Shown: positions 1,215 to 20,709 of the stretch, piece after piece
Numbering within the stretch: the first letter of the stretch is position 1
Layout of the letters: every line of letters begins with the position of its first letter
Source of the DNA: Craspedostauros australis
Lineage: Eukaryota
DNA length: 39,258 nucleotides
Direction: 5' to 3'
Assembly: GCA_030167865.1 (NCBI GenBank)
Contig: JALAGF010004940.1
Location: forward strand, 1-39,258
Position numbers and translations under genes: made by a program
Notes under the pieces: generated by a model
What the model was told of the DNA's origin: nothing
The model's database searches: none
What the model saw: the letters and a program-made list of their open reading frames with translations, nothing else

Positions 1215-1434
1215 AGGAATGCATGCGATAGCACCTTCGACGACAAAAGCGTATGCTTCGTTCCATCCAAATCTTTGGATCTTGTGTGTTCAGCGATGTT
1301 GGTGTTGACGTTGTTGGCGTTTTCGTCGGTCATGTGTGCATCCGCCAGAAATGACGAAGGTTCAGTCGATGTTGTCGGCAGTTTTGGAATCTGGTCTGTT
1401 GTGTGCCAGACGGATGCGATGGGTCTGGCGCTAG

Positions 1435-1484
1435 TGCCTCAAAGAGCCGGCTGTAACCAAAAAAATTGGTTACAGTTGGTTACA
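1435..1484. repeat. Left bipartite terminal inverted repeat
   Basis: 16-bp outer TIR, 10-bp spacer (ctgtaaccaa), and 24-bp inner repeat aaaaattggttacagttggttaca (1461-1484), which is the reverse complement of 5153-5176 with one mismatch. Confidence 0.9.
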
Positions 1485-1928
1485 AGAAAAATGTCGTGTA
1501 GATCGTGGTACACATTCTACGCAAGTCCCGAACAAAAACAGGCCAAAAAACAGCATAAACCAAAGTTAAGCTCTCCGCGCTAAGCTCGTATGGGTCATAC
1601 TGTACTCGTATTTCCAATATAGCATCACATAGCGTTTATATATAGAATACTGAAGTTTGGTGGCTGTTGCTCTCTTGCTCGGTGAGCATTGATGTGATCC
1701 GTCAAGCACCCCAATCATTCACGAATGCGTTCAGGCAATCGAGACGTGTTTGGGCACCACAGACACGTTTGGACTCGTCACACACATCATCTCCGCTTCC
1801 CCACCTCACAATTTTGTTCATGATGCATTGCCAACACCTCGGTAAGAGACAACAGCACAGTCAAATCAATCAATTGATGCCCTCTTCAGATGCATACGGA
1901 TCATATTGTATAACAGTGTATTTATGGA

Positions 1929-4574
1929 TTATTGTGCATTTCCCTCGTCGCTCGTGGCATGTGTGTGGAAGCATGTGCGGGTGTCCCCTTTTTTTGGAAC
2001 TGCTGGGCAGCACCACACGAGCGATCCAGGCGCAGATGATGGGCAATGTTCGCACATGAAGCAGACAACCTTCTTGCAGATGACACATCTTCCTCGTGCC
2101 GATCTCTGTCCTTGCTTCAAGCGCCCATTGGTGTCCTTATAGACATTTGATAGCTGTTTCTGTGCTTTCACCAGGTGGTGATGGCCGATTCGGTGTGGTG
2201 ATTGTTTCTGTTGCTGTTGCTGTTGTGGTTGGCTGTTGTTGGTCGCGCTGTCGTTTGGCTCGTTGGATGCTTTCGCCCCATCGTCCACGGCATCGTTGGC
2301 ATGCCCTTGTGGCAGAATAGATGTGGTTTCCAGACACCGCGGCATGTCATGTTCCTTGTTGAAGATCATGTCCTCTGCGAGCATGTTGATGAAAGTTCGC
2401 AGGGTGACCTGTTTGTGCCTGTGCCGAGACCCGAGATGATACGTGTACGCCTTCATTGCATCCACGACAGTGAGGGCGAACAATGTTGTAACCAGGCGGA
2501 AATACCCGTCCTTTGTCACCCAGATCCTCTCGAGTCCCAACACATCTTGGCGGACATGATTGTGCGTGTCCACGGCATTGCACGCACCAAAATACTTACT
2601 CGCCACCTCGGGTCTTGGGACCTCCTTCATTTGATGCCCGCGTTCGTCGTCGATCCATCTCGCGATGTAGGGTGTGGATGCCCCCAAATGTCCTGATCCA
2701 GAGGAGAACACAAATGGAATCACTGAATTGCGCGAGTACTTGTATCCCAGGGCGTGTATTTCTGTTGCAGCATCATCACAATTGACATCCCCATCGTCAC
2801 GGTTGCGTTTCAGAAGCAGCTGTGTTCCGGAGGGCCAATCGCTCATCTTTTCTTGGAGAAACTTGAGAGGGAAGCCGGCGGACGAGGTTTTGATGATTCC
2901 GATGAATCCAGAATTTGCCTTCGCAGCGATCTCCGAGCACGTCTGCACAGAGGCAAACCATGAATCTCCAATGAAAATGCTTCTTGGGAAGGAAAACTCT
3001 GACGTGTCGATGTGAATGTTGTTTCGACCCATGTCATGCGTCGCGAGAGCCATGCGCAGAGAACAGGCAACAGTTGCTTTCCTGCAATCTCTCACGTGAT
3101 CGGCCTGATCCATCTCTCGCTTTCCGCGTTGAATCTCCAAATGAAGCATGATACCGGTTTCGCCATCAGCAACGGTTTTAAACTCCACCCCAAGTGGTTC
3201 CGGCTTGCGTGGAATGTGTGTCAGATGTGGAAGGTTTCCAGTGGGCGTCAGACAAGGCTTATACGCAGTCATGCTTTCGTCCATGACTTTTACCTGGCCC
3301 GGAATGATCGTGTCACAACGACGTTTGTTGAATAACTCCACCCCAGGTTGAATTTGCCACCACTTATCACTGTGTTGCCTGGCCGGGTCAGAGAACAAGT
3401 AAGGGATGAAGTGTTCGCGGATGTGTTTGAATTGGTGGAAAGGCATGTGCTTCGTGAGATCCCTTACCTCACAGAACCCTTCACTCATCCGGTCACCCCA
3501 GAGCTTCGTGGTGGATTCCAGCTTGCCCACGAGCATGATCCCAAAAAACACCCACAATTCGCGCTCTGATACAGGGTGTTCGTTGCACCGGCCGCCAACA
3601 TCAATTACACCTGCATTGATTTGCCTGTTGAGAGCGTCGATTTGTCGCTTCCAATCACCTGGCCACAGATGTTGAACCAGTCCCAGCAGGTTGATGCGGT
3701 CACGGTTGGTGTCATCTTGCACACATCTCTTGCCAAAGTCAAAATCTGCGACGCCGACCTTGGTTTGGGGCTCTTCGCCACACTGTTGGATCGAATCGTC
3801 ATCAACTACTGTCCATGACACTGCATGCTTCTGCTTGCCAACTGTGACTGTAGTATTCATCAATTCATGCTTCTCCTCCATGTGTGAGTATCCTGCTGGC
3901 TCTTGTTCGCGTAGCATGACGTAGTCGAATTTGTCGCCCGTGAGCAAATTGCCTGTGCTCGAGTCAAAGGTGCCTTGGAGGTTATCTGTTGCATCATCGT
4001 CGCCGCAAACCAAGATTCCTGGTGCAGACTCATCCGTGTTTCGGTTGGAGATGTCCATGGCCGAGCCATGGCTGGTTGATGTACTGTTGGGAGGGGAGAA
4101 GACATTGGCGCTTTGCGAATAAGACTCGTCACTGAACGTTGATGTGGCACGGCAGAGGTTGTGGTACTGCGAAGTCTTGTAGTGTTTATCTAGCTCTGCT
4201 GATCCTCTCCCAACACTCTGCATGCGGATGAGCTCCTCAACACAGCTGCTGTCCAATTCAACTCGCGTCTTGTCAAGTACAGTCAGCTTGGTTCCTGCAT
4301 GTTCACACACTGCGTTGATGGAACGCCAGTGTACAACCCAGTGATTCTTGGGGAGGGACTTGAGGACGACACCATAAAGGACGCTTCGGACCTTGCCCTT
4401 GCTGTTTCCAGAGGTCACAAGAGGTCCACAGGGACTCGATACGTGGCTTCCAGGGCGGATCTTCATGGTGCGATGTTCAGTGGAGANTAGATAGAGAGGA
4501 GGGCGATGTCGGTTGGGGTAGAGAAAAGCTGGTGCTGCACCTGTTGTTGGTGTTGCATCTGTTGCTGTTGCCAT
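1929..4574 (-). CDS. piggyBac-like (PGBD / DDE_Tnp_1_7-type) transposase, 881 aa
   Basis: Catalytic-type motifs VMDESM, FIGDSWFAS and NAVDTHNH, plus PRKPEPLGVEFK. C-terminal Cys-rich domain CVICKK..CFMCEHC...CC...CFHTH. The single N (4487) lies in codon NTC, which cannot be a stop. Confidence 0.93.
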   Translation of the reverse strand: MATATDATPTTGAAPAFLYPNRHRPPLYLXSTEHRTMKIRPGSHVSSPCGPLVTSGNSKGKVRSVLYGVVLKSLPKNHWVVHWRSINAVCEHAGTKLTVLDKTRVELDSSCVEELIRMQSVGRGSAELDKHYKTSQYHNLCRATSTFSDESYSQSANVFSPPNSTSTSHGSAMDISNRNTDESAPGILVCGDDDATDNLQGTFDSSTGNLLTGDKFDYVMLREQEPAGYSHMEEKHELMNTTVTVGKQKHAVSWTVVDDDSIQQCGEEPQTKVGVADFDFGKRCVQDDTNRDRINLLGLVQHLWPGDWKRQIDALNRQINAGVIDVGGRCNEHPVSERELWVFFGIMLVGKLESTTKLWGDRMSEGFCEVRDLTKHMPFHQFKHIREHFIPYLFSDPARQHSDKWWQIQPGVELFNKRRCDTIIPGQVKVMDESMTAYKPCLTPTGNLPHLTHIPRKPEPLGVEFKTVADGETGIMLHLEIQRGKREMDQADHVRDCRKATVACSLRMALATHDMGRNNIHIDTSEFSFPRSIFIGDSWFASVQTCSEIAAKANSGFIGIIKTSSAGFPLKFLQEKMSDWPSGTQLLLKRNRDDGDVNCDDAATEIHALGYKYSRNSVIPFVFSSGSGHLGASTPYIARWIDDERGHQMKEVPRPEVASKYFGACNAVDTHNHVRQDVLGLERIWVTKDGYFRLVTTLFALTVVDAMKAYTYHLGSRHRHKQVTLRTFINMLAEDMIFNKEHDMPRCLETTSILPQGHANDAVDDGAKASNEPNDSATNNSQPQQQQQQKQSPHRIGHHHLVKAQKQLSNVYKDTNGRLKQGQRSARGRCVICKKVVCFMCEHCPSSAPGSLVWCCPAVPKKGDTRTCFHTHATSDEGNAQ

Positions 4575-4601
4575 GGTCGCAGTCGTGTTGCTGAGTCCTC
4601 C

Positions 4602-4615
4602 TCATGACGTCATGA
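4602..4615. promoter_or_regulatory. Perfect 14-bp palindrome TCATGACGTCATGA (CRE/bZIP-type core) just upstream of the transposase ATG
   Basis: Palindrome is seen directly 28-41 nt upstream of 4574; its regulatory role is inferred. Confidence 0.35.
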
Positions 4616-5142
4616 TGACACGAAGAACGGAAATTAATTTTCAGACATGCTTCCGAGAGTGGATCCGAGTGGTCAAACAGCATTCCGATTGTCATGGGAG
4701 CACTAAACGCGAGCATACCAACACACCATGGCAATCCAACAATGCATATACCATATTATTGTGACCGCCTTGGAGAGAAGATTCTGAAATGATATCTATT
4801 GTGCAGATTGAACCAAAGACCGCTCAGCGCGGAGACTTCAAAGATGGAGGGTCGAATTTCTCGAAAAAAGAGGCAAGATCCTACCGGACTCCTGTAGAAT
4901 CCTACGTGTAACCAACTGTAACCAATGAGATAAAAAAAATCCGGTCTGTCCGTCGTCCGAAGGAAAAACCACACCAATGGGGTCAACAAACACTAAAAGA
5001 TCGACTAGATAGTAGTAACAACAAGATATTGTTATTGCTTGCCTGGATAGCCCTGGCTCTTAAGTTTATGTATATGCAAAGAGATATTCGATTGAGTGTC
5101 TATAAAACGAAGGCGGAGTTTGGGAAAAACTGATCCAAAATC

Positions 5143-5197
5143 TGTAACCAATTGTAACCAATTGTAACCAATTTTTGGGGTCCGGCTCTTTGAGGCA
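5143..5197. repeat. Right bipartite terminal inverted repeat with 3 tandem TGTAACCAAT units
   Basis: tgtaaccaa at 5143, 5153 and 5163, then a 5-bp spacer (ggggt) and the 16-bp outer TIR. Two more tgtaaccaa units lie at 4907 and 4917. Confidence 0.9.
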
Positions 5198-5516
5198 CTA
5201 GTCGTAAGTATGTATGACCTCGTTCAGGGTTCTTATGGAGTCAATTACGGATTCTAAAGATAAGCCCTTAGATCATCTTATTATGGTGTAGATAGTATAT
5301 TTTGTGAATTTATAGACTCCAGGGCCTTATGCAGGAACGGGAGTCACACGTACATGTCGCAGGAGGCAGTAATGTTGGACTTGTGACCAGCATCACGATA
5401 CTCGATACTACGGCCCCTATGCCGCAACGAACAAGGAAGGAACATGCAGAACAGACCAACAACACGAAGTGTGAGATGGCTTGTGAACGGATCCCTGATG
5501 ATAAACCAGTGAAGGA

Positions 5517-6335
5517 TTGGTGAAGTATCGGAGAGGTATTGGAGAAGTGTTGGTGAGGACCGGAGATGTTTCAGAAAGAGAAACCAAAGGAGGGACTAAA
5601 CAAGCTGTTCACGTGAAACATGGAGACTGTGATCCAATTGAATGGAACAAGTTGGATGATGCCTGTGACTTGGCAATGTCTATGCCAACAAAACTATCAG
5701 AGGCAAGCCAACGTGATGAGTGTACAAACATTGGGAAGTTGGTGGGGCATGTATGTCCATGATGAATTCAAGATGAATGCAAGATGAATGCATGCTAGAC
5801 CAATGGATGGACCCATGGAGATCTCAGGAAGAGATCTAACTTTGAAAGTTGAGAGCCATGAAGAGCTCACAGTTCAGAGAAGTAGATTCTAACAAACAAA
5901 TAGTTTTCTACTATCATTGCCACCCTGGATTTCCAACAGACTGGATCCAGAAGCAGGAGTAATGGATGCAGATGCACAAGTGTCAATATCCTGATGCCAA
6001 AGCATGGGCCAGAGAGACGGCGAGGTGGATATGGAAGGTGCCCTGGGAGGTGTGGCTGGCAAGTAACGCTAAGGTCCATGATGAAGAGCAACACCTGACA
6101 GTGCAGGACCTGCGCAAGCAGGTTTGCCACCTGACGCAAGGCGCGAGAGGGACATGAATGATTCGGAGCTACATCTGCTTCAAAAATACCACGGTATCGA
6201 GTTTGGTACGGAGGAACAGATGAAGCAATGGGTGGATTCCGTGATCGCCATTCATGTGGCGGTTAAAGCACGGTGACGATCGCGAACGACGCAAGGCGAG
6301 AGGCGAGCAATGGCGTCGTGGTTGGGGCTGGGCTG
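5517..6335 (+). pseudogene. Degenerate 3' portion of a non-LTR (LINE-like) retrotransposon ORF
   Basis: Interrupted translation gives ...IEWNKLDDA...CP*...DWIQKQE*W...AKAWARETARWIWKVPWEVWLASNAKVH...QMKQWVDSV...ERRAMASWL. This W-rich pattern resembles the C-terminus of diatom non-LTR elements as I recall it. Stops and frameshifts are present, and no RT domain is visible. Confidence 0.55.
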
Positions 6336-6425
6336 AACAGGGACACCTGAAAGCTCGCTCAAGGCATGGTCCTACAGGGCCTGCGGCGGCGAGGGTAAAG
6401 CCCTGATGGCACATTTCTAATGTAA

Positions 6426-9354
6426 TCACTGAGTTATTATTGCTTCCAGCTTCTTTTCGATCTTGGCTTCAACTTCTGCCACAAGTCTTTGAAGCACCTG
6501 TTCTTGATCTTCCTTTGCAACATACTTGAATACCATTTCTTCAATCTCTTCCATGAAGGCAGCCTCCATCACGTCGTAGCGTTCTCTGCCCAATGCATCG
6601 GCGACAGCACGATCACCAACAACTCTTTCTCTTTCGGCCGCAGCAATATCGGCTTGGCTCATCGTTTCATCCACAGGGCTTTCTGGTCGGTTCGCTACGC
6701 AGTAAACACACTCATCACCAAACGGAATTCGGAGGAGCTTGTGAAAGATCCCCGTCCTTGGTGTTGCGGATGTCTTCGTTGGAAATCTGCCGACCGGTTG
6801 TGTGATCCTTTGCCTGGATGCAGATGGTGACGAGCTTGAGGTTCTCCCACATGATCTTGTTGCCGTCCTCCTTCTTTTGAGCAACCACGACGGACACGTA
6901 TCCGTCTGCCAAGTTGCTGTTGCCTTCTGCGACGCTTGCGATTGGAGGGTGGAACACCTGCGTCCCTTCCTCCAGCGTTGGGTTTGTCTTGATGGCGTTT
7001 CGCAGGTCCCAGAGTCCCTTGAGGTAATCCTTGTCAATGGTCAGCGTTGCTTCGTCACTATGCAGGAGAGGGGCATACTTCCAGAGTACGCCAGTGTTGA
7101 TGAAGGGATCAGGATTGTTGCATTCGACCCCCCAACCTTCCAGATCCTCCCAGTAGGTTTGGTTCTGTGGCTGCTGGTGAGGGCTGCGTTGTGGTTGTGG
7201 TCGCCCCAATGACAACTGCATGGGTGACTTCTGAAGGTACATGCCCTTCATGGCAAACTCTGATGGAAAAGCAACAGGGTACCATCCGTCAAGCCCTTCC
7301 CATGAGTCTTCTATGCCCTTGTCCACGAATAGAGATGTGACAGCATCACCATCTCTCACTTCCGATGCGTACATCGCAGCGCCATCCTCGAGCATCGATT
7401 TCAGACCCTTTCGATCTTCTGGTTCAACGGTCGTGGCTGCTGCTATCACACTGGAGAGGAATTGGACTGCGAGTGCTTCATATGCGAATGGTGTCGTCCC
7501 CAAGGCTTCATCGGCATGTGCCAGGACTTTTCCGCCAGCGATCATCCAGCTACAGAGCCGCTGCATGGCAGGGTCCATGAGGAAAGGGTACATCTCAACT
7601 TCCCTGTTCTCCTGTTCTGCCCGTCTGGAGAGATCCGCGAATGATTGGATTGTCAGGAGGCCAAACTTGCCAAGGAGATCGTCTTTGTCGACGTAGTGCT
7701 CATCAAAGTGTTGGAAGCGGATGGCATCTTTCAGAGCCTTCTCTCGAACGACATGGGGAGCGTCACCAGGATACACCGTGATCTTTTTCTGGAAGAGGAG
7801 GGCAGCGTAAGCGCTTGCCGCAACCTGTAAGCGAAAGTGTGGCAAATCCCACACGGACGATATGCCGTTGGTCACGCAGAAGTACACAAAAACAGTTGTG
7901 ATGATCTTGGCTTGATGGCGGGGATCACCATATGAGAAGTTTGTGGTTGCAAGGTGGAACACCAAGGCAGAGGTCATTCTTGAGTTGTGGTGGACGATAT
8001 CGTTGAGGAGGGGATATTCTGGAAGCTGTTGAAAGGGTGGAAATTTGTGCGACTTGCCTGGATACTCTTCACAGAGAACGTTGTAGACGTCTTCAGCCTT
8101 TCTTTTGGCGATTGGTTGAAGTTGCTCGAAGTTCTTATGCACGGTTCCTTCCATGTCACCATGGAGGCTTGTCCCTGCAATGGAGAACACCACCTGCAGT
8201 GATTCCTTCTGCGTCTTCTTCCAGTTGTCCTCATCGTCACGGTTTTCGCTTTCGTCTGGGTTGTTGCATCCCATCATGATGAATGCAGCAAGATCCTGAC
8301 CAAGATCTTGGTAGTTGCGGATGATCTCATTGGCGAGGTTGGGTTGTGATCCTGCTTCATCGATGGCGACGACGATTCGCACCTTGTCTTCCTTGGTGTT
8401 GCGGTCCTTGATCATTTGAGCGATCTCGACAAAAAGAGCTCGGGTGCCCTTGTCTTGATCCACGAGCTTGTCAATGGTTGTCTTGAGACTGATTCGTGCT
8501 TCGCCTTGTCGCTTATCGCCCCACGCAGCAGTAGGAATGTCTTTGGGGACATCCAGTTGGATGGAGAAGGCAGCATCTCTCGAGTACGCGCTCGCTGCGA
8601 GCTCGGCTGTCTTGCCACTCCCGCTGGCAGAGCAGTACAGCAACACCAGGTCGCAGTCTGCCGCGTCAGTTGCCTTTTCCATGTACAGCTTCTTTGGCGA
8701 TCTTCCATGTCTGGCTTGATGTCGGAACTGAGGGTTGCCGAGGTAGAAGACCTGGCGAGAAGAATACGAATCGCCGTGTCCAGTGGAAACTTTCACTTGA
8801 TGGAGTCTTTCTGTTGTTTCGTCACGGATGGCTTGGTTCAACTTGTTGATGATGACATCTTGGAGTGATGCTGGTGAGCCTTCGTTGAGGGGTGGGAGTC
8901 CTGTGAATGATTGGCGGGCAAACTCGATGTTGTTGACGTTGCAGAACCAATGATGAAGCGTGGGTGGGGTTCTGCCTTCAGACCGACTTTCCGCTTCGTG
9001 ACGCACTTTTTGTTGGTACTCTGTGTCTTTGAACATCGGGGTGTACACGAGTCGCGAGTAGACCACTGACTCGGCAGGAGTGAGATCAAAGCCTCGATCT
9101 GTCAATTGTTGTTCAAGCTCCGTCGTGGTCCATTTGTCATCCCAGAACCAGGCATTTTCGAATACCGATTCCCATGGAGGAGGTGATACTGTGCCAGATC
9201 CGTTGGAGAGAGGCTTGGCGACAGTTGCTGCAAGTACGCTGGGTTGCTTTTCGTCCCGTGAAGAGCCGGAAGAGGAACCCAGTGGGGGAGGTTTCTGCTC
9301 GTTGTCCTCTGCAACTTTCTTGCTGCTCTTGCGCTTGTTCTTCTTCCTCCCCAT
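6426..9354 (-). CDS. P-loop NTPase + PD-(D/E)XK-like nuclease protein (Crinkler/RHS-type-like), copy A. A +1 frameshift at 6750-6753 gives 879 aa as written, or 975 aa if repaired.
   Basis: Walker A SASGSGKT, Walker B IVVAIDEAG, and NLADGY...ICIQAK. CCCC here versus CCT in copy B shifts the frame; homology to copy B continues in the 6426..7037 ORF frame. Confidence 0.75.
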
Positions 9355-10648
9355 TGCTGCAACTGTTCTTGCGGAGTGTGATATTCCAACTCTTGGGGGT
9401 GTCGTCTGTTGTATGGTGGGGGTGGATGGTTGCAGGCTTCCTGTGATGTTGGAAAGAACTGTGGGATATGCGCTGGACGTCTTGAGGAATCAGTGAGAAT
9501 GGTCATGGGAGAAAACGCGACAGAGACGATGGAGATGACGAAGCTCAGCAACAAGCAACAGCATTCAACGAGCAACAGATACAGTTGAAAAGAAGGGCAA
9601 GAGAAAGACAGATCGTGAGAGATGGATGGCAGCTGGTTGGATTTGGGATGGCACGATCAACCCCCCTTCCCACAATGGATGGGTCTCCAGTACAGTACAA
9701 TACAGCACCATACCAACATTCCATCCTCTCGAATTGAACAACTCTGACACAAGCACAAACACAATCTCCATCACAACGAGGAGACACCGACCGTGGTGGG
9801 CCTTCCTTGTCAGTGTGAATGTCATTGGTAGTGTCAGTGTGGATGTGAATATCCGTTGGTGGGGCATCGATTCGTCTTCTCAGTTCGACGAAGTTGGAAT
9901 GGTTCGAAGTGCAATACGATGCCAGGCCTGCATCCAACCATATACTTACCTTTGATCTCTCCCAGAGACTTGCGTTTGCTGCTTGTGTTGTCGGAGTCGT
10001 GGACAGCACTGAGGCTCGCATCTTCGCTCGCTTCAAGCGCGGCAGAAAGCGCCGACATCCAATCATATCCTTGCCTTTGTTCTTTCCAGAACCTTGAGAT
10101 TGCTGTGTTTGTTGTTGATTGTGTTGTTGGTTGTCAGAGTTGTGGCCAGCACTGAGGCTCGTTGCTTTGTTTGCTTCAATTGTGGCAAAACCGTGCCAAG
10201 ATGCGGACTTCGTGGTTGCCACGCCAAGAAAGGAATCAAGACAGTGGATTGTCCTGTCTTGCCGTTGTCACGACGGTCGTCTTGTTGGAGGAGTTGGTGC
10301 TCTGCGGATGCTGGCGATCGTTTCGCTGTGAGTGGGACTGTCGTCGTCACTGGCGATAATGCAGATGAAGATGCAGACGAAGATGATGACGAGGAAGATG
10401 GCCTTGCTTCTGAGGAAGGTTGATGTTTGTGGTCCTGTTTGATTGATGTCCGCAATTGTGTTTGATTTCGTCATCGTGTCGTTGTCATCGTAGTTGTCGT
10501 CGTTGTTGTTGTTGTTTCTTTCGCCATGGTGAAAGCCTGTTGTGTTCTGAAACGATGTGTTGCGTTTTCCAGGTTTTCGGTGTAACCTTGGGAGTTGTCA
10601 GGTTTTGGCGCAACCTCCTCGAACTCTGTGTTGTTCCAAGTGTGACGC
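6439..10648. repeat. Segmental direct repeat, copy A (~4.2 kb)
   Basis: Colinear similarity with 15125-18937, from attgcttccagc to caagtgtgacgc, covering coding and upstream sequence. Confidence 0.95.
9545..10527 (-). pseudogene. Degenerate ORF-like region with internal imperfect repeats, upstream of NTPase copy A
   Basis: Broken frames carry repeated peptides (LKRAKMRASVLSTTPTT / LKQTKQRASVLATTLTT; ERSKVSIWLDAG / ERTKARI*LDVG) and a TM-like stretch IFLVIIFVCIFICIIA. Also present, with different breaks, at 18072-18814. Confidence 0.3.
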
Positions 10649-11211
10649 CAATAAGAAAACGGCGACGATTGATCAATTGGCACCTCTGGGTGGAGATCCA
10701 GGTTCAAACCCATGTCACCTCCACTCACATGAACATGTTGGCACGAGGATGTTGCGCACAGTGATTGAGCAGTTGCAACATGCCACGCGAAGTGCCGTGT
10801 GTGTTGTGATGTGCTCTCCTGTGTTGTGCTGTGCTGTGCCCTCATCCAGCGTCTGTGCTTGACCAAGTCCATTCTCATGTGTTTTCAACCAATGGAACCA
10901 GTACCAAACAGGGCAGGGCATGGCGGCATAGAATCCAGGATCGTCCGGTTTCGTTCTGGGTCACGGAGGAGTCATCCACTCCAGGCAACAGCGCTGGGAC
11001 CGGGTGCAATGCTCGCTCATTTAGAATTCAACTACGCCATGCTACACTATACTCTGCAATCCAATGCAGCTCCATATCTACAAGCACAAGAATCAATGCA
11101 GCAGAGTACCCCAAACACACACGTCGACTCGTCCTATATCAGTCCACACAATCGACTCTGTCTACTCTACTCTAATCCACTCTGCTCTGCTCTATTCCAT
11201 TCTGCGACATT

Positions 11212-12030
11212 CTATGAATCAGAATCCACCGCTGGACCATCAACCGCCGGACCACCAACGATACTGTACCCACCATCCACATAGATCGTCTGACCTGTGA
11301 TGCCTGTCCCACCCATCGACAAGAATGACACCGTGTCCGCAACCTCATCCGCTGTCACATTGCCCAACGGTGCACGCTCCTGCATCTCCTGTCGCATAGC
11401 TCCAAAGTTGGCGATGCCACCCTTGGCCGCCACCGTGTTTAAGGGACCCGCGCTGACCGCGTTGACGCGCACAGGTACCATCTCCAGTGCCAGACCGCGC
11501 ACGATGGATTCCAGGCTGGCCTTGGCCGGTCCCATGACATGATACGATGGGATGGCGCGCACGGCTCCCAAGTACGTCAAGGCTGTGATGCTGGAGTGGC
11601 GTTCCATGTGAGGCTGTGCATGTCGTGCCAGTTCGATGAGGGAGTATGCTGAGATGGCATGGGCCTCTTGATAGTCTTCCAAGGTGGTGTTCAGCAAGGG
11701 TCGGTGCAGGTTGTTGGCAAATGCCACGGAATGCACGATGGCATGCAATGGACGATGGTGTTGTGACACGTGTTGAAAGAGTTTTGGGATATCGTGTTGG
11801 ACATCGCAAATGAGGCCTGTCAATGACGGATGTTGTTGTTGTTGTTGCTGCTGTTCGGTGTGCTTGTGCATCATCCGTTCCACCTTGGTGCCGATCTTTT
11901 CATTCTGATACGTGAGGATGACATCGTAGTTGTTGTTGAGAAAGGAGCGGACGCAGCTCCATGCGATGGATCTGGCATTCGCAACACCCAAGACCAATGC
12001 GAGCGGTCGTTGAGCTTGTTGGATGCTCAT
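11212..12030 (-). CDS. fabI: Enoyl-[acyl-carrier-protein] reductase (NADH), bacterial FabI-type SDR, 272 aa
   Basis: GVANARSIAW, CDV, IVHSVAFA, ISAYSL, LTYLG...YHVMGPAKASLE (Y-x6-K), VNAVSAGP, GITGQTIYVDGG. Confidence 0.92.
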   Translation of the reverse strand: MSIQQAQRPLALVLGVANARSIAWSCVRSFLNNNYDVILTYQNEKIGTKVERMMHKHTEQQQQQQQHPSLTGLICDVQHDIPKLFQHVSQHHRPLHAIVHSVAFANNLHRPLLNTTLEDYQEAHAISAYSLIELARHAQPHMERHSSITALTYLGAVRAIPSYHVMGPAKASLESIVRGLALEMVPVRVNAVSAGPLNTVAAKGGIANFGAMRQEMQERAPLGNVTADEVADTVSFLSMGGTGITGQTIYVDGGYSIVGGPAVDGPAVDSDS

Positions 12031-12334
12031 TTTTGTGGTGTGCTCTCGTGAGAGAGTTGCGGATGCAGAGCGGCTCTCTCATCTGGAATGCTTCGTGGTG
12101 TGGTCTCCATTGGAGATGATCACGCTTGTAACCATATCCAATGCAACGCAACGCAACGCAACTCCGATCTCAGTCACAACCACGAAGATCGCAGATGTGT
12201 TGATGATGTTGATGGTGTTGATGGCTTGGTTGGAGCCGAAAGATCTCATTTTCTGAGATTGTTCGGTTTCGTCGAAGTTTGTGTGACTCGTGAATGGACC
12301 CATCGGAGTAAATGTGAGTCCGGTGATGAATCCG

Positions 12335-12392
12335 ACGTCATCATTGACAGACTACGTCATCAATACTTGAAGATCTATAAGTAAGATGACGT
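12335..12392. promoter_or_regulatory. Three ACGTCATC/GATGACGT motifs in the divergent intergenic region
   Basis: acgtcatca at 12335 and 12354, and gatgacgt at 12385. The TGACGT core is a bZIP-type site; function is inferred. Confidence 0.35.
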
Positions 12393-13132
12393 CGTGTGAT
12401 TTGGTGTTCGCATGTTGAGAAAGAACAATCAGCGACAGTTGGGAACGAAATGGTTCTTGTGTTGGAAAGAACCGACGTGTGCGTGTTCATGGTTGGAGAA
12501 ACAACGAAGCACATCAATTCTTGGAGACTCCACGATACGCGTGGAACAGGAGGTGAAGACAACTGCCACTCAGGCAACAAATCAGATTGGATGAGAAACA
12601 TCACTGAGAAGAGCGCCGCCGCATTCGTCGTTGTGGGCAGAGGAGCATTGGCACGAGAAGGAGGGCTGCCACACTCCCGGGAGTCTGAGGTGTTGGCCCA
12701 GTTGATGGATTGGGACATGGCCTCGCCATTTTCTGCGTGGTTGTTGGTGCCTTGTGGACGTGGCTGATCGGGCGATCGTTGAAGTTGTGCAAAGAGGGTG
12801 TTCTTCGTTGCTCTCTCGCTTTCTGCTGATCTCTTCAGCTTTGGAGACGAGAGAGGGAGACGGAGATGCAGAGAGATAGCTTCTGCTGACTCTCTGTTGT
12901 GACAACAGCGAATCACTATCACTGCTCCGCACTCTGCGATCCTCAAAGCAACCACTGTCACTGTGATTCCTACTATTTTCTGCACATCTCTCAGATCGAA
13001 CCATTGATACAGTCACGCACAAGTGACAGGCCATCCGTGAGAACTCTCTCTCGTTCGACAGAAGAACAGCACAACATCGGCACAACGTCGGCACCACCGT
13101 AAAGACAGCGATAGATCTTGCCTCATGCAACC

Positions 13133-13993
13133 ATGTCTGGCGTTGCTCACAATTCAATGAACCCCACAACGATGACAAGCACCACAGCCATCGTGAACAA
13201 GAACTCACAGAAAGCAACCACAACCAACGAAAAAGGAACGCAAAGACGAACAAGAATGAGAACATCAGGAGCATACTGGATCGCCCTCGCGGGTGCTGTT
13301 TGGGCGGTGGGTTTGGCCTCGGCTTCCCTCATGCTGCGTCCAGATTCGGGATTGGCGACGATGCAAGCTGATCATCCCAGCGGCAGCATCCTCAATGGCA
13401 GTGCCTCCCTCAGCAGCTGGTGGCTGCAGATTCGCACCATCATGGGACATGAGGCTGAGCGGAATGTATCGCAGGAAGGCACTTCGAACTGGATCGATGA
13501 CACCATATCGCTGCAACCCAGCATGTTCCTCGTTGAAAACCTCCGCGAATCGGATGTCCTGAAGCACATGGAACCCATCTTGCCGACGTCGTTCGCTGGC
13601 AAGGTCGTCCTGGCCACCGAGCTCACGATGCTCATGCTGTTCCCGATGCAGCGGGCGTCCATCGTCTCTGGCAAGCTGGCGCTGCAGGTCAGCCGCGGCC
13701 TTGGCTGGTCCGCTAACCTGGGTCGCTCCGGCAACCTCGTCCTGCAATCCAAGCTCGTTCGCGCCGTGACGCGTCCCGTGGTCTCCGTCGCCAAGACGGT
13801 GCGCTCGATCTACAAGAACAGATCCAAGCTCTCCGTCGTCAGCGAGATCACCTACTACGCCGATCTGCCACCGCAGAACGCTTCCACGGAGATGTCGCAA
13901 GACGAGCAGCAGCAAGAAGAGGAACAGCCCGTCGGTTCGCGGAGAGAGGACTACAACCTCTTCAGCGCTTACAGCAAACACATGATCATCTGA
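13133..13993 (+). CDS. Hypothetical protein with an N-terminal hydrophobic (TM/signal-like) segment
   Basis: ORF with GC3-rich codon usage in its 3' half and the hydrophobic stretch YWIALAGAVWAVGLASASLML. Start is uncertain (several Met). Confidence 0.65.
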   Translation: MSGVAHNSMNPTTMTSTTAIVNKNSQKATTTNEKGTQRRTRMRTSGAYWIALAGAVWAVGLASASLMLRPDSGLATMQADHPSGSILNGSASLSSWWLQIRTIMGHEAERNVSQEGTSNWIDDTISLQPSMFLVENLRESDVLKHMEPILPTSFAGKVVLATELTMLMLFPMQRASIVSGKLALQVSRGLGWSANLGRSGNLVLQSKLVRAVTRPVVSVAKTVRSIYKNRSKLSVVSEITYYADLPPQNASTEMSQDEQQQEEEQPVGSRREDYNLFSAYSKHMII

Positions 13994-14907
13994 ACATCTC
14001 CGAGCAGTTCACAAGAGCTTCCATTGCGCGGCGTCAGCCAAGGCGCACCATTTTGATAAACACGCACACGCACACCAGTGCAGTTCGCACATCCCACTCT
14101 GATACCTCCACACAGCACAACACAACACAGCAACACACCGCACATATCATTTTTACATATTCATACATACCATACCATACACGATATCACACATCATGTC
14201 ACAGATCATAGCACATTAGAACACACCAATACAGAAGTACTGACTCTACACATACTAGCGCAAGTACAACACCATATAGTACAGAGGAAGGTACGGAAGA
14301 GGATACTGAACAGGATACTGAAGTGGATGACCAGGTCCAGCACAAGGAGGCAACTGAGGATAGCACGCAACACGGAGCTCTGACAGGCTGGGCGATACAC
14401 CACGAAGTAGGCATTGCAAGCCCTTCCCAACCACACCAGCGGCGAGGGAAGGACAGACCAACCAGATGGACTCACTGCGATACACAATGGTCGCACAGGA
14501 ACAGATCAAGAGCAACAACAGGCCAACCCTGGCTGGACGGTGACAGGATGCACTGCACAGAACAGCAACCTGTTCATTGTGAACCGCTCTCCACGAGTAA
14601 TATCACAACTATTAGAAATCCACCATGTTACATATAGCACACATGATACAACCTGGTTTGATGATGGTTCCTTGTCGACTTCCGAGATGCTGTGCCACGT
14701 CACTCCACTGTCATGGGCTGTCATGGAACGCCCCTCTGTCACCACATCTTCAACCCTCTTGCATCACTCATCGTGGACGTGGTCGGATCAGCTGAGTGGC
14801 TTCACTTCCACACCGTCATGCATGCAGTCCGCGTTGGCACTGGTTTTCACCACATCCACATTCCACCACTGCTGCCTCCAGCCACCTCCTGTTCTCTATT
14901 GTTCCGC

Positions 14908-17649
14908 TCACTTCGATGATGTGTGTCCGAAGTCGGTTCGAACTGAAGAGTACTTCAACTGGACACCGAAACTCTTGGTCTTCCCACACCCGCCACAGTC
15001 AATACCCACGTCCAACACCGCCTTCGAAGCGGTGGACTTACCGATCGGCATCGTGATGTATGGCTCAAGGTGGGTCTCATCAGCTTCTGCTTCTGCTGTG
15101 GCTGCATTTCTAGCTTCCTCTTCGATTGCTTCCAGCTTCTTTTCGATCATGGCTTCGAATTCTGCCAGGATTTCTTGAAGGAACTGTTCTAGATCTTCCT
15201 CTGCAACGTACTTGGGTGCCACTTGTTCCAACACTTTCATGCAGACAGCCTTCATCACGTCGTAGTGTTCTCTGCCCAATGCATCCGCGACAGCACGATC
15301 ACCAGCAACTCTATCTCTTTCGCTTTTGGCCGCATCAGCATCGGCCTGGCTCATCGTTTGATCCACAAGGCTTTCTGGTCGGCTCGCTACGCAATACACG
15401 CGATCATTGCCAAATGGAATTCGGAGGAGCTCGTGAAAGATCCTGTCCTTGGTGTTGCGGATGGATTCGTTGGAAATCTGCCCATCGGTTGTGTAATCCT
15501 TTGCCTGGATGCAGATGGTGACGAGCTTGAGGTTCTTCCACACAATCTTGTTGCCGACCTCCTCCTTTTGAGCAACCACGACGGACACGTATCCATCTGC
15601 CAAGTTGCTGTTGCCTTCTGCAACGCTTGCGATTGGAGGGTGGAACGCCTGCGTCCCTTCCTCCAGCGTTGGGTTTGTCTTGATGGCATTTCGCAGGTCC
15701 CAGAGTCCCTTGAGGTAGTCCTTGTCAATGGTCAGCGTTGCTTCGTCACTATGCAGGAGAGGGGCATACTTCTGGAGTTCATCAGTGTTGTTGGGGGGAT
15801 CAGGATTGTTGTGTTCGACCTCCCAGCCTTCCAGGCCATCCCAGTAGGTTCGGTTCCGTCGCTGCTGCACTTGTTGCTGCTGCTGCTGTGGTTGTGTTCG
15901 CCCCAATGACAACTGCATGGGCGACTTCTGAAGGTACATGCCCTTCATGGCAAACTCTGATGGAAAAGCAACAGGGTACCATCCGCGAAGCCCTTCCCAC
16001 GATTCTGCGATGTCCTTGTCCACGAATGGAGATGTGACAGCATCACCATCTCTCACCTCCGATGCGTACATCGCAGCGCCATCCTCGAGCATCGATTTCA
16101 GATCCTTTCGATGTGTTGCCTCAACGGTCGTGGCTGCTGCTGTCACATTGGAGAGGAATTGGACTGCGAGCGCTTCATATGCGAATGGTGTCGTCTCCAA
16201 AGATTCATCGAGATGTGCCAGGACTTCTCCACCAGCGATAATCCAGCTACAGAGTCGCTGTATGGCAGGATCCATGAGGAAAGGGTACATCTCAACTCTC
16301 CCGTCCTCCTGTTCTGCCATCGTGGAGAGATCCGCGAATGATGGGATTGTCAGGAGCCCATACTCTCCAATGAGATCGTGTATCTCGACGCGGTCCTCAC
16401 CAAAGTGTTGGAAGTGGATGGCATCGTTCAGAACCTTCTCTCGGATGGAATGGGCATCCTCACCAGGTGACACCTTGATCGTTTGCTGGAAGAGGAGGGC
16501 AGCGTACGCGCTTGCCACAATCTGCTGGCGTGCGTGTGGGGACTTCCACAAGGACTCCATGCCGTTGGTTGTGCAGAAGTCCTCAAAAACAGTTGAGATG
16601 ATCTTGACTTGATGGCGGGGATCATGATAGGAGAAGTTCGCGGCCGCAAGCTGGAACACCAAGGCAGAGGTCATTCTTGAGTTGTGGTGGACGATATCGT
16701 TGAGGAGGGGATATTCTGGAAGCTGTTGATAGGGTGGAAATTTGTTCTGACTGTCTGGATACTCTCGACAGAGAACGTTGTAGACATCTTCAACCTGTCT
16801 TTGAGCAATTGGTTGGAGTTGCTCGAAGTTGTCAGGCAAGCTTCCTTCCGTGTCACTCTGGAAGCATGTACCTGCAATGGAGAACACCACCCGCAGTGAT
16901 TCCTTCTGCGTGTTGATCCACTTGATCTCATCGTGACAGTTTCCGCTTCCGTTTGGGTTGTTGCATCCTGTCATGATGAATGCGGCAAGATCCTGACCAA
17001 GATCTTCATAGTCGCAGATGATCTCATTGATGAGGTTGGGTTGGGATCCTGCTTCATCGATGGCGACGACGATTCGCACCATGTCTTCCGTGGAGTTGCG
17101 GTGCTTGATCATTTCAGCGATCTCGCCAAAAAGAGCTCGGATGCTCTCGTCTTGATCCACAAGCTTGTGAATACTTTTCTTGAGACAGATTCGTGCTTCG
17201 TCTTCCCGAACATAGCCCCACTCAGCAGTAGGAATGTCCTCGTCGACAACCAGTTGGATGGAAAAGGCAGCATCTCTTGAGTACGCACTCGCTGCGAGCT
17301 CGGCTGTCTTTCCGCTCCCGCTGGCAGAGCAGTACAGCAGCACCCGATTACGGAATGCCTCGTCAGTTGCCTTTTCCATGTACAGCTTCTTTGGCGATCT
17401 TCCATGTTTGGCTTGATGTCGGAACTGAGGGTTGCCGATGTAGAAGACCTGGAGAGAAGAATGCCATTCGCCGTGTCTGGTGCAAACTTCCACTTGATGG
17501 AGTGTTGGTGTTGTCTTTTCACGGATGGCATTGTGCAACTTGTTGATGATGACATCTTGGAGTGGCACCGGTGACCTTTCGTTGGAAGGTGCGATTCCTG
17601 TGTATGATCGCTCGCTGCTCCTGTTCTTGCGCTTGTTGTTCTTCCCCAT
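14908..17649 (-). CDS. P-loop NTPase + PD-(D/E)XK-like nuclease protein (Crinkler/RHS-type-like), copy B, intact, 913 aa
   Basis: Uninterrupted ORF from MGKNNKRK (ATG homologous to copy A's start). Walker A at ~17305-17328, Walker B at ~17048-17068, ADGY...IQAK at ~15499-15600, then a C-terminal coiled-coil-like acidic helix. Confidence 0.8.
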   Translation of the reverse strand: MGKNNKRKNRSSERSYTGIAPSNERSPVPLQDVIINKLHNAIREKTTPTLHQVEVCTRHGEWHSSLQVFYIGNPQFRHQAKHGRSPKKLYMEKATDEAFRNRVLLYCSASGSGKTAELAASAYSRDAAFSIQLVVDEDIPTAEWGYVREDEARICLKKSIHKLVDQDESIRALFGEIAEMIKHRNSTEDMVRIVVAIDEAGSQPNLINEIICDYEDLGQDLAAFIMTGCNNPNGSGNCHDEIKWINTQKESLRVVFSIAGTCFQSDTEGSLPDNFEQLQPIAQRQVEDVYNVLCREYPDSQNKFPPYQQLPEYPLLNDIVHHNSRMTSALVFQLAAANFSYHDPRHQVKIISTVFEDFCTTNGMESLWKSPHARQQIVASAYAALLFQQTIKVSPGEDAHSIREKVLNDAIHFQHFGEDRVEIHDLIGEYGLLTIPSFADLSTMAEQEDGRVEMYPFLMDPAIQRLCSWIIAGGEVLAHLDESLETTPFAYEALAVQFLSNVTAAATTVEATHRKDLKSMLEDGAAMYASEVRDGDAVTSPFVDKDIAESWEGLRGWYPVAFPSEFAMKGMYLQKSPMQLSLGRTQPQQQQQQVQQRRNRTYWDGLEGWEVEHNNPDPPNNTDELQKYAPLLHSDEATLTIDKDYLKGLWDLRNAIKTNPTLEEGTQAFHPPIASVAEGNSNLADGYVSVVVAQKEEVGNKIVWKNLKLVTICIQAKDYTTDGQISNESIRNTKDRIFHELLRIPFGNDRVYCVASRPESLVDQTMSQADADAAKSERDRVAGDRAVADALGREHYDVMKAVCMKVLEQVAPKYVAEEDLEQFLQEILAEFEAMIEKKLEAIEEEARNAATAEAEADETHLEPYITMPIGKSTASKAVLDVGIDCGGCGKTKSFGVQLKYSSVRTDFGHTSSK

Positions 17650-18937
17650 TGTTGCGACTGCTCTTGCGGAGTGTGGTATTCCAACTCTTGGGGATGCCGT
17701 CTGCTGTATGTTGTGGGTGGATGGTTGCAGGCTTCCTGTGACGTTGGAAAGCACTGTGGGATATGCGCTGCACGTCTTGAGGAATCAGTGAGAATGGTCA
17801 TGGGAGAAAACGTGACGAAGGCGACGAAGCTCAGCAACAAGCAACAGCATACAACGAGCAACAGGTACAGTTGAACGGAAGGGCAAGAGAAAGACAGATT
17901 GTGAGAGATGAATGGCAGCTGGTTAGATTTGGAATGGCACGATCAACCCCTGTCCCACAATGGATGAGCCTCCGGTACGATACAATACAACGCAATACCA
18001 TACCACATTCCATCTTCTGGAATTGAACGGGCCTGACACAAGGACAACCACCTGCACAAGCACAATCTCCATCACACCAACAAGACATTGTGATGGGCCT
18101 TCCTTGTCATGTTTGTGTCATTGGTAGTGTGAATGTGCATGTCAGTGTCAGTGTGAATGTTTGTCGGTGGAGTATTGATTCGTCCTCTCAGTTCGACGAA
18201 GTTGGAATGGTTCGAAGTACAATACGATGTCAGGCCTGCATCCAAACATATCCTTACCTTTGCTCTCTCCCAGAGCCTTCCGTTTGCTGCATGTGTTGCT
18301 TGTGTTGTCGGAGTTATGGACAGCACTGAGGCTCGCATCTTCGCTCGCTTCAAGCGCGGCAGAAAGCGCCGACATCCAATCATATCCTTGCCTTTGTTCT
18401 TTCCCAGAGCGTTGCGTTGGTTGCTTGTGTTGTCTGTTGTCGGAGTTGTGGCCAGCACTGACACTCGTTTCTTTGCTCGTTTCAAGTGCGGCAGAAACGT
18501 GCCGAGATGCGGACTTCGTGGTTGCTACGCCAAAAAGGGAATCAAGATAGTGGATTTTCCTGTCTTGTCGTTGTCACGACGGTCTTCTTGTTGGAGGAGT
18601 TGGTGTTCTGTGGATGCTGGCGATCCTTTCGCTGCCAGTGGGACTGTCGTCGTCACTGGCGGCAATGCAGATGAAGATGCAGACGAAGATGATGACGAGG
18701 AAGATAGCCTTACTTCTGAGGAAGGTTGATGTTTATGGTCCTGTTTGATTGATGTCCGCAATTGTGTTTGATTTCTTTCGTCGTCGTCGTTGTTGTTGTT
18801 GTTTCTTTCGCCATGGTGAAAGCCTGTTGTGTTCTGAAACGATCTGTTGCGTTTTCCAGGTTTTCGGTGTAACCTTGGAAGTTGTCAGGTTTTGGCGCAA
18901 CCTCTTCGAACTCTGTGTTGCTTCAAGTGTGTGACGC
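15125..18937. repeat. Segmental direct repeat, copy B (~3.8 kb)
   Basis: Colinear with 6439-10648, but lacks ~400 nt present in copy A at ~8914-9321. Confidence 0.95.
18072..18814 (-). pseudogene. Degenerate ORF-like region upstream of NTPase copy B (paralogue of 9545-10527)
   Basis: Same repeated peptides as in copy A, with an in-frame TAG at 18525-18527. Confidence 0.3.
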
Positions 18938-19245
18938 GGTCTTCGTATCTGTCTAGTCTCCGACTCGTTCGATCGCGGTTCCAATCGAAAGAACGTTAAC
19001 GAACAAAATGTTCTTGAGATGTCTATTCTTTGAAAGCTGCGTTAAATTACTTTTATCTGTATACTTCCATTCGCAGATTATCTGCAATATACATAAATCA
19101 AACTCAACTCCCAAAAAGTATAACTGTATCCAATATGAATATATCGCAACCCTAAGGATCCACGCAGGCAACAACTGGCCGATCGCTTTCTTTCTTCCAT
19201 CACATGACAACGTATCGTAGCACTTGCGAATAGGAACGAGCACCA

Positions 19246-20598
19246 ATGCCAACGATGCGTTCCATCCAGACATACACGATCTTGGGATCACTGCTGCTGC
19301 GCAACACGAGCTCCTTGGCTCGAAACACTGCGGCTCCATCTCGAGGAATTGCGCCTCGCTGCGCATCTTGGGCGGTCAGCACAGCGAGCTTTGGTGGTTG
19401 CCTGCGATCGCGATTCTTGCCGTTTGCATCGCTGCGCCAGGGTTCCTGTGTTGCAGTTGCATCATCATCATCGACACGCCTTGCGTCGTCGCTGACTGAT
19501 GCACCAGCCATCCAAGATGACATCGCAGACGACGAGCTCCCGCCGGACTTTCCACGACGCGACGATGTGCTGACCGCCATCCTTGCGGCGCGCCGTGCCA
19601 GTCGGATCACCGTGGCCTTGCAACCATCGCACGATGGCAACAAGGATTCCATCGCGACCGTCGCCAAAGCCGATGCTTCGCCTGTCACGGTGGCCGATTT
19701 CGCGTCGCAAGCTGTCGTGCTGCAGCACATCCACCAACAGTATCCATCCGACTCGTTCATCGCCGAAGAGAGTTCTCAATCTCTGCAGCACGATGCCGAT
19801 TTGGCCGACTCGGTCCTGCAAGCGGCATCGGCGTTCATCGATGATCCGCAGGCGTTGTTCGACGCCATCGATTTGGGAAAGATGTACGAACGCAATGCAA
19901 CGAATCCATCCCGCGTCTGGTGCTGCGATCCCATCGACGGAACGAAGGGATTCTTGCGCGGCCGTCTGTCCGGCGGACAGTACTGCATCGCAATTGGATT
20001 GATCGAAGATGGCATCCCGACCATCGGCGTGCTGGCATGCCCCAACCTCGAGGCAGGCACACAACGCGGATGCATCTTCGTGGCGTCGCAAGGCGGCGGC
20101 TGTTACCAGCTGCCGTTGGTGGCCGGGACCGCACCGACTGTCCGACTCCACGGCGGCGCAATCACATCGCCCGCTGACGCCCGATTCTGTATCGGCGTCG
20201 AAATTGGCTTCGGTGATCCCGATGGCAAATGCAAGGAGATGGCCAAATTGCTGCACGAGGACGCCATCGATCCCGATACGGGCGATATCGCCAAGGCCCT
20301 GCGCATCGACAGCCAAGCCAAGTACGGCGTCATCGCTCGCGGGGGTGCGGAGTTGTACGTGCGATTGCCCAAGAAGGGATACCGCGAATGGATCTGGGAT
20401 GTGGCGCCTGGCGTCGTGGTTCTGGAAGAGGCGGGTGGGAAGGTGACGGACACAAATGGCGAGGCATTGGATTGCGGGTTGGGAGCACAGCTCGCGCCTC
20501 ACGTGGAGGGTGTCTTGGGTAGCAGCGACGTCACGCTACATGCCGCGCTGGTGAATTCCTACCAAACGCAAGAGGCTGCAAGAAGGGATTCCGAGTGA
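19246..20598 (+). CDS. SAL1: 3'(2'),5'-bisphosphate nucleotidase (SAL1/HAL2/MET22 family, inositol monophosphatase superfamily) with a probable organellar targeting peptide
   Basis: KADASPVTVADFASQA, IAEE, WCCDPIDGTKGFLRG, QYCIAIGLIEDG, IDSQAKYG, YREWIWDVAPG. The ~85-aa N-terminal extension is S/R/A-rich. Confidence 0.92.
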   Translation: MPTMRSIQTYTILGSLLLRNTSSLARNTAAPSRGIAPRCASWAVSTASFGGCLRSRFLPFASLRQGSCVAVASSSSTRLASSLTDAPAIQDDIADDELPPDFPRRDDVLTAILAARRASRITVALQPSHDGNKDSIATVAKADASPVTVADFASQAVVLQHIHQQYPSDSFIAEESSQSLQHDADLADSVLQAASAFIDDPQALFDAIDLGKMYERNATNPSRVWCCDPIDGTKGFLRGRLSGGQYCIAIGLIEDGIPTIGVLACPNLEAGTQRGCIFVASQGGGCYQLPLVAGTAPTVRLHGGAITSPADARFCIGVEIGFGDPDGKCKEMAKLLHEDAIDPDTGDIAKALRIDSQAKYGVIARGGAELYVRLPKKGYREWIWDVAPGVVVLEEAGGKVTDTNGEALDCGLGAQLAPHVEGVLGSSDVTLHAALVNSYQTQEAARRDSE

Positions 20599-20709
20599 CT
20601 ACATTCGAGTATCTTTTGAGCCGCGTATGCATCTAAAAATTTGTATCGTTAGAGTTTCCCCATGTTTCTCTCTTCATATTAATGCTAAACTTGTTCCACA
20701 ACAAGCGCC

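Follow-up and report, generated by a model that had tools for sequence, protein, structure and literature searches.

Introduction

What kind of gene joins a P-loop NTPase to a nuclease-like domain, occurs more than once on a single contig, and is kept open while the DNA around it decays? The question is raised by a 39,258-nucleotide stretch of Craspedostauros australis (Eukaryota; assembly GCA_030167865.1, contig JALAGF010004940.1), here called the window, in which two copies of such a gene, W1 and W2, lie on the minus strand. The original prediction, made from the letters alone, saw in them duplicated proteins with an NTPase and a restriction endonuclease (REase) fold, resembling the Crinkler/RHS-type (CR) effectors. 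The explanation that we favor, and to which we give about an even chance, is an intracellular ATP-gated conflict nuclease of CR architecture that is most likely defensive. Diatom defense against viruses and mobile DNA is little known, and no function has yet been tested in CR-type proteins from free-living eukaryotes. The family described here offers an intact, testable copy (W2), catalytic variants that occur naturally, and, in a decaying passenger gene, an internal control.

The window copies and their state

The two copies comprise the following features, all on the minus strand. Residue counts, here and below, refer to the 31 of 34 aligned family members that span both domains.

14908-17649: W2 (copy 2), 913 amino acids (aa), intact; NTPase, helical/winged-helix, and PD-QxK-type parts, with a basic N-terminus and no helical header
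17305-17340: W2 Walker A, LLYCSASGSGKT, with K114 (K kept in 31/31 in the alignment)
17047-17073: W2 Walker B, IVVAIDEAG, with D198-E199 (DE kept in 30/31)
16672-16683: W2 N-x-R, N323 and R325, invariant; R325 is probably a sensor arginine
15589-15606: W2 NLADGY, with the putative catalytic D685 opening a strand
15499-15516: W2 ICIQAK, with the putative Q715-x-K717
15061-15384: W2 helical insert, clade-specific, separating the final two strands of the C-terminal domain
15040-15060: W2 last strand, YITMPIG, which follows the helical insert
6715-9354: W1 (copy 1), an 879-aa frame with its start at 9354 and its stop at 6715; it ends out of frame
9142-9174: W1 helical header, WESVFENAWFW
8608-8643: W1 Walker A, LLYCSASGSGKT
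8350-8376: W1 Walker B, IVVAIDEAG
6898-6915: W1 NLADGY
6808-6825: W1 ICIQAK
6426-6753: W1 broken 3' end, with a frameshift in the C-run 6750-6753; likeness to W2 ends at 6439 and the last strand is missing

As predicted, the Walker A, Walker B, NLADGY, and ICIQAK motifs are present in both copies and both open with a basic stretch. The two predicted copies do exist, but W2 alone is intact. In the assembly sequence the C-run of W1 exceeds that of its relatives by one base, which shifts the tail to another frame, and the truncation at 6439 takes away the last strand whether or not the frameshift is real. The cut end adjoins a second repeat, the end of a long terminal repeat (LTR)-like element, and a piggyBac-like transposon. 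Over 2,486 nt the DNA of W1 and W2 is 87% identical, and upstream of both genes lies a common non-coding stretch of 1.3 kb at 85% identity. In the nuclease segment the two are 97% identical, and the nearest relatives of their NTPase parts are other copies, as in mosaics; the incompatibility between neighboring sites (0.315) falls below that of all 200 shuffles (minimum 0.380). W2 is thus a candidate active gene, while W1 is evidently a broken copy that still swaps sequence with W2. The predicted order of header, NTPase, and REase-like domain is supported for the family, except that W2 lacks the header, a helical part of about 130 aa that W1 has, that W2 and locus L032 have lost by deletion, and that differing tags precede in other members.

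The NTPase half

The AlphaFold2 model covers W2 residues 66-792 with a mean pLDDT (predicted local distance difference test) of 78. Its first 410 residues, roughly residues 70-480 of W2, fit STAND-type modules best in the VIA fold search, and Foldseek is concordant with this ranking. NLRs and archaeal ATPases are matched at Z 9.4-10.8, among them NAIP/NLRC4 (Z 10.8, root-mean-square deviation 5.0, 288 residues aligned), WRR4A (Z 10.8), the archaeal Walker-type ATPase PAB2304 (Z 10.5, deviation 5.9, 289 aligned), and SSO1545 (Z 9.8). Orc/Cdc6, MuB, and TnsC follow at Z 6.6-7.9 (TnsC and MuB at 6.6-7.2). The matches cover model residues 8-412 and take in whole archaeal ATPases of 350 aa, that is, the NTPase together with its HTH-like helical part, and the Atlas neighbors of this half are the PF01637 archaeal ATPases. 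A search of viral folds gave generic AAA+/STAND matches only, none reaching E 0.001 or better. An upstream RH motif and the N-x-R motif are near-invariant across the aligned members. The model shows the predicted NTPase half to be a STAND/Orc-like P-loop module with intact Walker A and B motifs, followed by helical and winged-helix-like parts.

The C-terminal domain

Conservation in the C-terminal domain centers on the putative catalytic residues, as D685 is kept in 31/31 members, Q/E715 in 27/31, and K717 in 30/31, and D and QxK are its sole near-invariant polar residues. A separate model of this domain (pLDDT 84), which misses the last strand owing to the insert of the clade, predicts a compact alpha/beta domain with the strand order beta-beta(D)-beta(QxK)-alpha-beta. 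The D opens one strand and the QxK closes the next (model strands 66-78 and 81-96), and this order and placement correspond to the PD-(D/E)XK arrangement. What had been taken for a coiled-coil-like C-terminal tail is a helical insert of about 100 aa that lies inside the domain, ahead of the last strand of the family.

The top three Foldseek rows for the domain are AspBHI, MspJI, and EndoMS, at a weak E of 0.05-0.08, while the VIA search lists Hjc, LlaBIII, ACE1, and splicing endonucleases at Z 3.3-3.7. Multiple nucleases of the PD-(D/E)XK fold turn up in both listings. Mrr-type enzymes use Q-x-K. Taken together, motif and strand order speak for the predicted REase fold, but no significant structure match backs it. 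We consider the domain a likely nuclease of PD-(D/E)XK type, and we call it likely rather than proven because the fold searches are weak.

In four loci (L035, L036, L039, and L053) in-frame repeats rich in Asp, Asn, and Tyr, up to about 45 aa long, expand the hairpin that links the putative catalytic D to the QxK.

Selection and spread of the window clade

W1 and W2 belong to a clade of 12 copies with 65%-87% protein identity. Eleven of the 12 were aligned for the analysis of selection; one copy with an assembly gap in its core was excluded and another gapped copy was kept. Ten of the 11 frames are open to a normal stop at a pairwise synonymous divergence (dS) near 0.15, and in a neutral simulation the probability of a frame staying open is at most 0.022. 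Three copies without the usual ATG have another ATG 17 codons upstream. A passenger SDR gene, by contrast, is intact in only 3/14 copies, and selection therefore appears to keep the clade genes open while the passenger decays. Within the clade, 19/113 family-conserved sites are variable, as against 344/614 other sites. Pooled ratios of nonsynonymous to synonymous substitution (dN/dS), which are crude values on recombining sequences, come to 0.82-1.04 for the core and 1.4-1.7 for the ends, with 0.47 and 0.32 for the passengers. These comparisons show open frames and putative catalytic residues under selection, with fast change elsewhere.

The DNA around the copies includes the following features.

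9355-10644, minus strand: upstream non-coding DNA of W1, co-duplicated with the gene
17650-18931, minus strand: upstream non-coding DNA of W2, co-duplicated with the gene; likeness to W1 stops near 18931
14237-14907, minus strand: 3' flank of W2, common to other clade copies, with a different endpoint in each
11212-12030, minus strand: passenger SDR gene of enoyl-reductase-like type (PF13561) that was copied along with the clade; it is intact in the window and in 2/13 other copies
13133-13993, plus strand: passenger gene of 286 aa without a Pfam match, carried in two other contigs

The comparison of flanks that had been suggested shows that the clade copies have flanking DNA in common, yet both ends vary from copy to copy. 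The 3' ends lie at various distances past the stop, between about 0.4 and more than 1.5 kb, and the 5' ends range from the upstream non-coding DNA to past two host genes (the SDR gene and the 286-aa gene). Positions 18900-24000 are single-copy in the genome and the clade copies sit in different neighborhoods; thus the copies are mostly true duplications, and we rejected an allele or haplotype artefact for the clade as a whole.

It could be argued that the gene is an autonomous transposon with the NTPase and nuclease serving as its transposase. The copies are dispersed with common non-coding flanks, TnsC and MuB are among the fold neighbors, and passages of PMC5289972 tie prokaryotic NTPase and REase pairs to transposons. 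However, host genes are carried along to variable lengths, the ends differ by copy, the clade copy ends examined show neither terminal inverted repeats nor target duplications nor tails, and no inverted repeat was seen to flank the window copies. We regard a transposon as highly improbable, and the "selfish element" of the original prediction, in the sense of an autonomous element with defined ends, is not borne out by these ragged ends. The clade has evidently spread by ectopic duplication and gene conversion, not by transposition of a defined element. The repeat at 5329-5939 was also considered as a carrier and rejected: it is the end of a high-copy element, found near family genes in 4/20 stretches that were partly chosen for that.

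Three further observations concern the flanks. A candidate intron with a GTAAGT donor and a CAG acceptor lies in the 5' leader (9473-9949, minus strand), with a matching stretch upstream of W2, and sequence comparison finds its GT and CAG conserved in 11/11 copies. At L052:2843-4110 the 3' flank of the clade is fused to an SDR fragment, followed by an LTR retrotransposon, without the NTPase gene; this appears to be a remnant of a duplicated unit. Directly upstream of two clade copies (L037:527-2050 and L038:7333-8856) lies a gene with a zinc-finger-like part and a VEFS-like C-terminus, which we take to resemble Su(z)12.

The family in the genome and in databases

A search of the genome with W2 returned 73 matches, and the C-terminal domain of a distant member returned 95, or 91 places once four split ones were merged. 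We estimate the family at about 60-90 loci, given as a range because some short contigs look duplicated and L037 and L038, which are 94% identical with the same flanks, may be alleles. The predicted duplication is therefore real, but it extends far beyond a pair, and this copy count rules out a single-copy housekeeping ATPase. A FastTree tree of 49 rows contains several tight bursts on long stems. None of the 11 contigs with telomere repeats, which are short, carries a family gene, as far as a subtelomeric position can be judged from them.

A profile search found 151 relatives among 1.84 billion proteins. Thirty were looked up, and all those with organism names are diatoms (Seminavis robusta, Nitzschia sp., and a Bacillariaceae bin), as expected for the algal host that was proposed, which on this evidence is probably a diatom; the remainder include transcriptome records of marine eukaryotes. 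The L103 protein is identical to the transcriptome-derived record P0155 (100% over 1,075 aa), and the family is therefore transcribed, as far as L103 is concerned. W1, W2, and their family have no Pfam, PADLOC, or NCBIfam family match and no sequence relative in PDB, and no relative was found in viral contigs, prokaryotic genomes, or plasmids by short-word scans, which miss distant kin. A distant eukaryote-like relative, P0168 (hhalign probability 97.5), was tried as a bridge to the named CR families and rejected, as it led to one further unnamed protein; P0168 may resemble kinetoplastid multi-copy proteins. Separately, the database protein P0105 has three SAP DNA-binding domains fused ahead of a family-like NTPase segment.

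In the diatom literature we found no account of this family; the paper that defines CR proteins and its supplement, which may list diatom members, lay outside that search. A passage search of the main text of the Seminavis genome paper (PMC7335047) turned up no Crinkler, NTPase, or nuclease, and the Crinklers in passages of bioRxiv 10.1101/2025.10.10.681168 are those of the parasite. The family is large, fast-changing, invisible to Pfam, old, and spread across diatoms.

N-termini as possible address tags

The N-termini of W1 and W2 are basic and non-hydrophobic. A K[KR]x[KR] motif stands near a terminus in 17/24 full-length homologues compared with 8.7% of internal windows, and the nuclear address that had been proposed is probable. 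Other members differ. By a crude test of hydrophobicity, the (-3,-1) positions, and F, with a background of 35/1,078, a plastid-type presequence is predicted in 4/29 genome members with a complete 5' end (L017, L114, L018, and L020, in two subfamilies; L114 is interrupted) and in 3/33 database homologues (P0006, P0007, and P0022). The pattern consists of a hydrophobic stretch, a cleavage site with small residues, F at +1, and an acid-free stretch, in line with the diatom plastid criteria in a passage of PMC4329603 (signal peptide, F at +1, and acid-poor transit peptide), and the genome members that carry it are about 80-100 aa longer ahead of the P-loop. L102 and L103 have acid-free extensions of 100 aa, which we infer to be mitochondrion-like. 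The D and QxK are retained in L020, L103, P0006, P0007, and P0022. The tagged members lie on separate branches of the tree, which suggests that tags have been gained repeatedly.

The N-termini thus resemble exchangeable address tags, of basic type in the window copies, and this pattern, in which some members appear to be of plastid or mitochondrion type, is what is new here. It is possible, and we propose it tentatively, that these are nucleus-encoded, ATP-gated endonucleases re-addressed repeatedly, through exchange of their N-terminal tags, to nucleus, plastid, and mitochondrion, which would exert surveillance or drive over all three genomes by destroying foreign DNA or the organelle DNA of one parent and would be renewed by ragged duplication and gene conversion. 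The organelle addresses of some relatives hint at an undescribed DNA-defense or selfish-gene system. If plastid and mitochondrial targeting is true, it would come as a surprise to find a CR-type nuclease directed at organelle genomes, and the family would open a way to study how algae inherit their organelles and defend organelle genomes.

The same N-termini bear on whether the protein might be released as a toxin that acts on competitors, grazers, or parasites, in the manner of the oomycete CRNs. A CRN-like architecture (as described in passages of PMC5289972), an Atlas look-alike cluster that is 45% Crinkler, and a minority of relatives with signal peptides speak for export. On the other hand, the window copies lack both a hydrophobic N-terminus and a Crinkler header, and the signal-bearing relatives show F at +1 with an acid-free stretch, a plastid pattern and not one of secretion. 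We give export very little credence, and the word "effector", read as a secreted toxin, finds no support in these copies.

Proposed function and its rivals

In STAND proteins, an NTPase switch keeps the effector inactive until a trigger drives oligomerization. An ATP-gated conflict nuclease of this kind would be sent to the nucleus by the basic N-terminus of the window copies, and to the plastid or mitochondrion in other members. The NTPase would restrain the nuclease until DNA or a protein, acting as trigger, led to nucleotide exchange and oligomerization, whereupon the nuclease domains could meet and cut DNA. The most likely purpose is defense: invading DNA such as that of viruses and transposons would be cleaved, or the cell killed.

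Several observations weigh against an ATP-gated defensive nuclease. Pfam-type profile searches of W1 and W2 found no sensor repeat families (LRR, TPR, or WD40). The top VIA match of the C-terminal domain is cofilin (Z 5.0), with the nucleases scoring lower and without significance (AF1548 at Z 4.5 and NucS/EndoMS at 3.9). In the L026 subfamily T-A-K replaces Q-x-K and D-D/N replaces D-E, and in L032 the site reads Q-V-M with the K lost; because these loci have lost catalytic-type residues and yet stay open, nuclease activity would not be required of every copy. The pooled dN/dS values are a crude estimate on recombining sequences. Finally, the evolutionary signature equally fits a selfish killer. 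Four loci (L026, L028, L029, and L030) combine an altered Walker B and QxK with open frames and common flanks; they may be inactive regulators or decoys.

The cofilin match raises the possibility that the C-terminal domain is another alpha/beta module, for example a cofilin-like one, and the protein a STAND-type signaling switch. Cofilin/ADF folds do tie or lead in both VIA searches, but the near-invariant D and QxK are positioned as in PD-(D/E)XK enzymes, many such nucleases stand in both fold listings, and the model missed the last strand. We consider a switch without nuclease quite unlikely.

The altered subfamily, together with Orc/Cdc6 among the fold neighbors, could also point to a domesticated factor of nucleus or nucleoid (a role proposed for RHS) that binds DNA via its NTPase and winged-helix parts and acts in chromatin, transcription, or repair, with a regulatory or vestigial nuclease site. 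RHS proteins occur in the nucleus as products of mosaic, multi-copy genes, and passages of PMC7563717 link them to chromatin and transcription elongation. Nevertheless, a dN/dS near or above 1 and a rapid turnover are unlike housekeeping, and the D is unchanged in 31/31 members and the K in 30/31, such that domestication appears unlikely to us.

The main rival, though still a rather unlikely one, is a selfish killer or drive like Tribolium Medea1, which would poison gametes, zygotes, daughter cells, or one parent's organelle DNA lacking the gene; each new duplicate would then be retained and spread with its flanks. Repeated bursts, open frames amid decaying passengers, dispersed ragged copies, and mosaics are all consistent with this, and Medea1 has the CR layout of NTPase and REase according to a passage of PMC11342252. 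Against it, no antidote gene is visible; the upstream 1.3 kb common to the copies was weighed as such a gene and rejected for its frame-breaking indels. Moreover, the family is old and diatom-wide with conserved active sites, and host benefit suits these features at least equally well. A defensive nuclease remains the reading that we prefer.

Other features of the window

Beyond the two copies and their flanks, the window contains the following features.

5329-6440, no strand assigned: transposon debris at the cut end of W1, comprising a high-copy element end that finishes TTTCCAACA (probably LTR-like) and a second repeat
1432-5202: complete piggyBac-like transposon with an 890-aa transposase frame (PF13843), terminal inverted repeats, and CTAG flanks
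32484-37714: cluster of four genes with acidic N-termini, followed in each by a common 39-aa repeat (117-nt period, units of "LAAPITFTPFK")

At least 40 ends related to those of the piggyBac-like transposon occur in the genome. The usual piggyBac flank is TTAA.

Comparison with known systems

Fold likeness is greatest to the archaeal Walker-type/STAND ATPases and to the NB-ARC/NACHT modules of NLRs, which give the best fold over about 285 residues and share the Walker A/B layout and the helical and winged-helix extension. They differ in sharing less than 15% identity with the family, which has no LRR, TPR, or WD40 sensor and carries its putative effector at the C-terminus, not the N-terminus. 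No prokaryotic sequence relative of the family was found in short-word scans, which are blind to distant kin. For the C-terminal domain, Mrr-like/NucS nucleases (MspJI, AspBHI, EndoMS, and AF1548) are the leading but weak fold matches, with the D likewise opening the second strand and the QxK on the third. These matches are not significant, and the diatom domain has a long hairpin and helical inserts and lacks the methyl-binding SRA domain.

Tribolium Medea1 resembles the window copies as an NTPase and REase gene that moves with neighboring DNA, and a selfish role is possible for both. In contrast, W2 lacks the histidine three residues past the active-site acid that passages of PMC11342252 give for CR-REase7. 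Trypanosome RHS genes, as described in passages of PMC7563717, likewise form many subfamilies of mosaic genes shaped by gene conversion and ectopic duplication, with broken donor copies and a nuclear address. There is no sequence match between the two, however, and none of the 11 aligned diatom copies has a retrotransposon in its 5' coding region; more than half of the RHS copies are broken in that account, compared with 1/11 in the window clade. Unlike the oomycete CRNs, the window copies have neither the ubiquitin-like LxLFLAK header nor a match to the Crinkler model.

With CR proteins, as portrayed in passages of PMC5289972 and PMC11342252, the family shares a variable N-terminal header, a P-loop NTPase, a helical part, and a C-terminal domain that is probably REase-like, as well as lineage-specific expansion, recombination, and occurrence in free-living eukaryotes. 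According to the former, NTPase, HTH, and REase form the commonest CR layout and are found in free-living eukaryotes, and some members are proposed to act on intracellular invasive DNA, with the NTPase as regulator of the nuclease. The diatom family differs in its own helical header, in the helical insert that the window clade has in its nuclease domain, and in the plastid- or mitochondrion-type presequences of some members, which those passages do not mention. Atlas gives a feature score of 0.94 to a cluster with 45% PF20147 (Crinkler), at a recognition of 2140, under the 2300 mark, which denotes a language-model look-alike. The proposed resemblance to CR effectors stands for architecture, whereas no match of W1 or W2 to a Pfam Crinkler or RHS model ties the family by descent to the CR clades described so far. 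By its sequence the family is not CRN or RHS in the narrow sense; judged by model and analogy, it probably works like a CR protein with NTPase and REase, and its membership of CR is likely.

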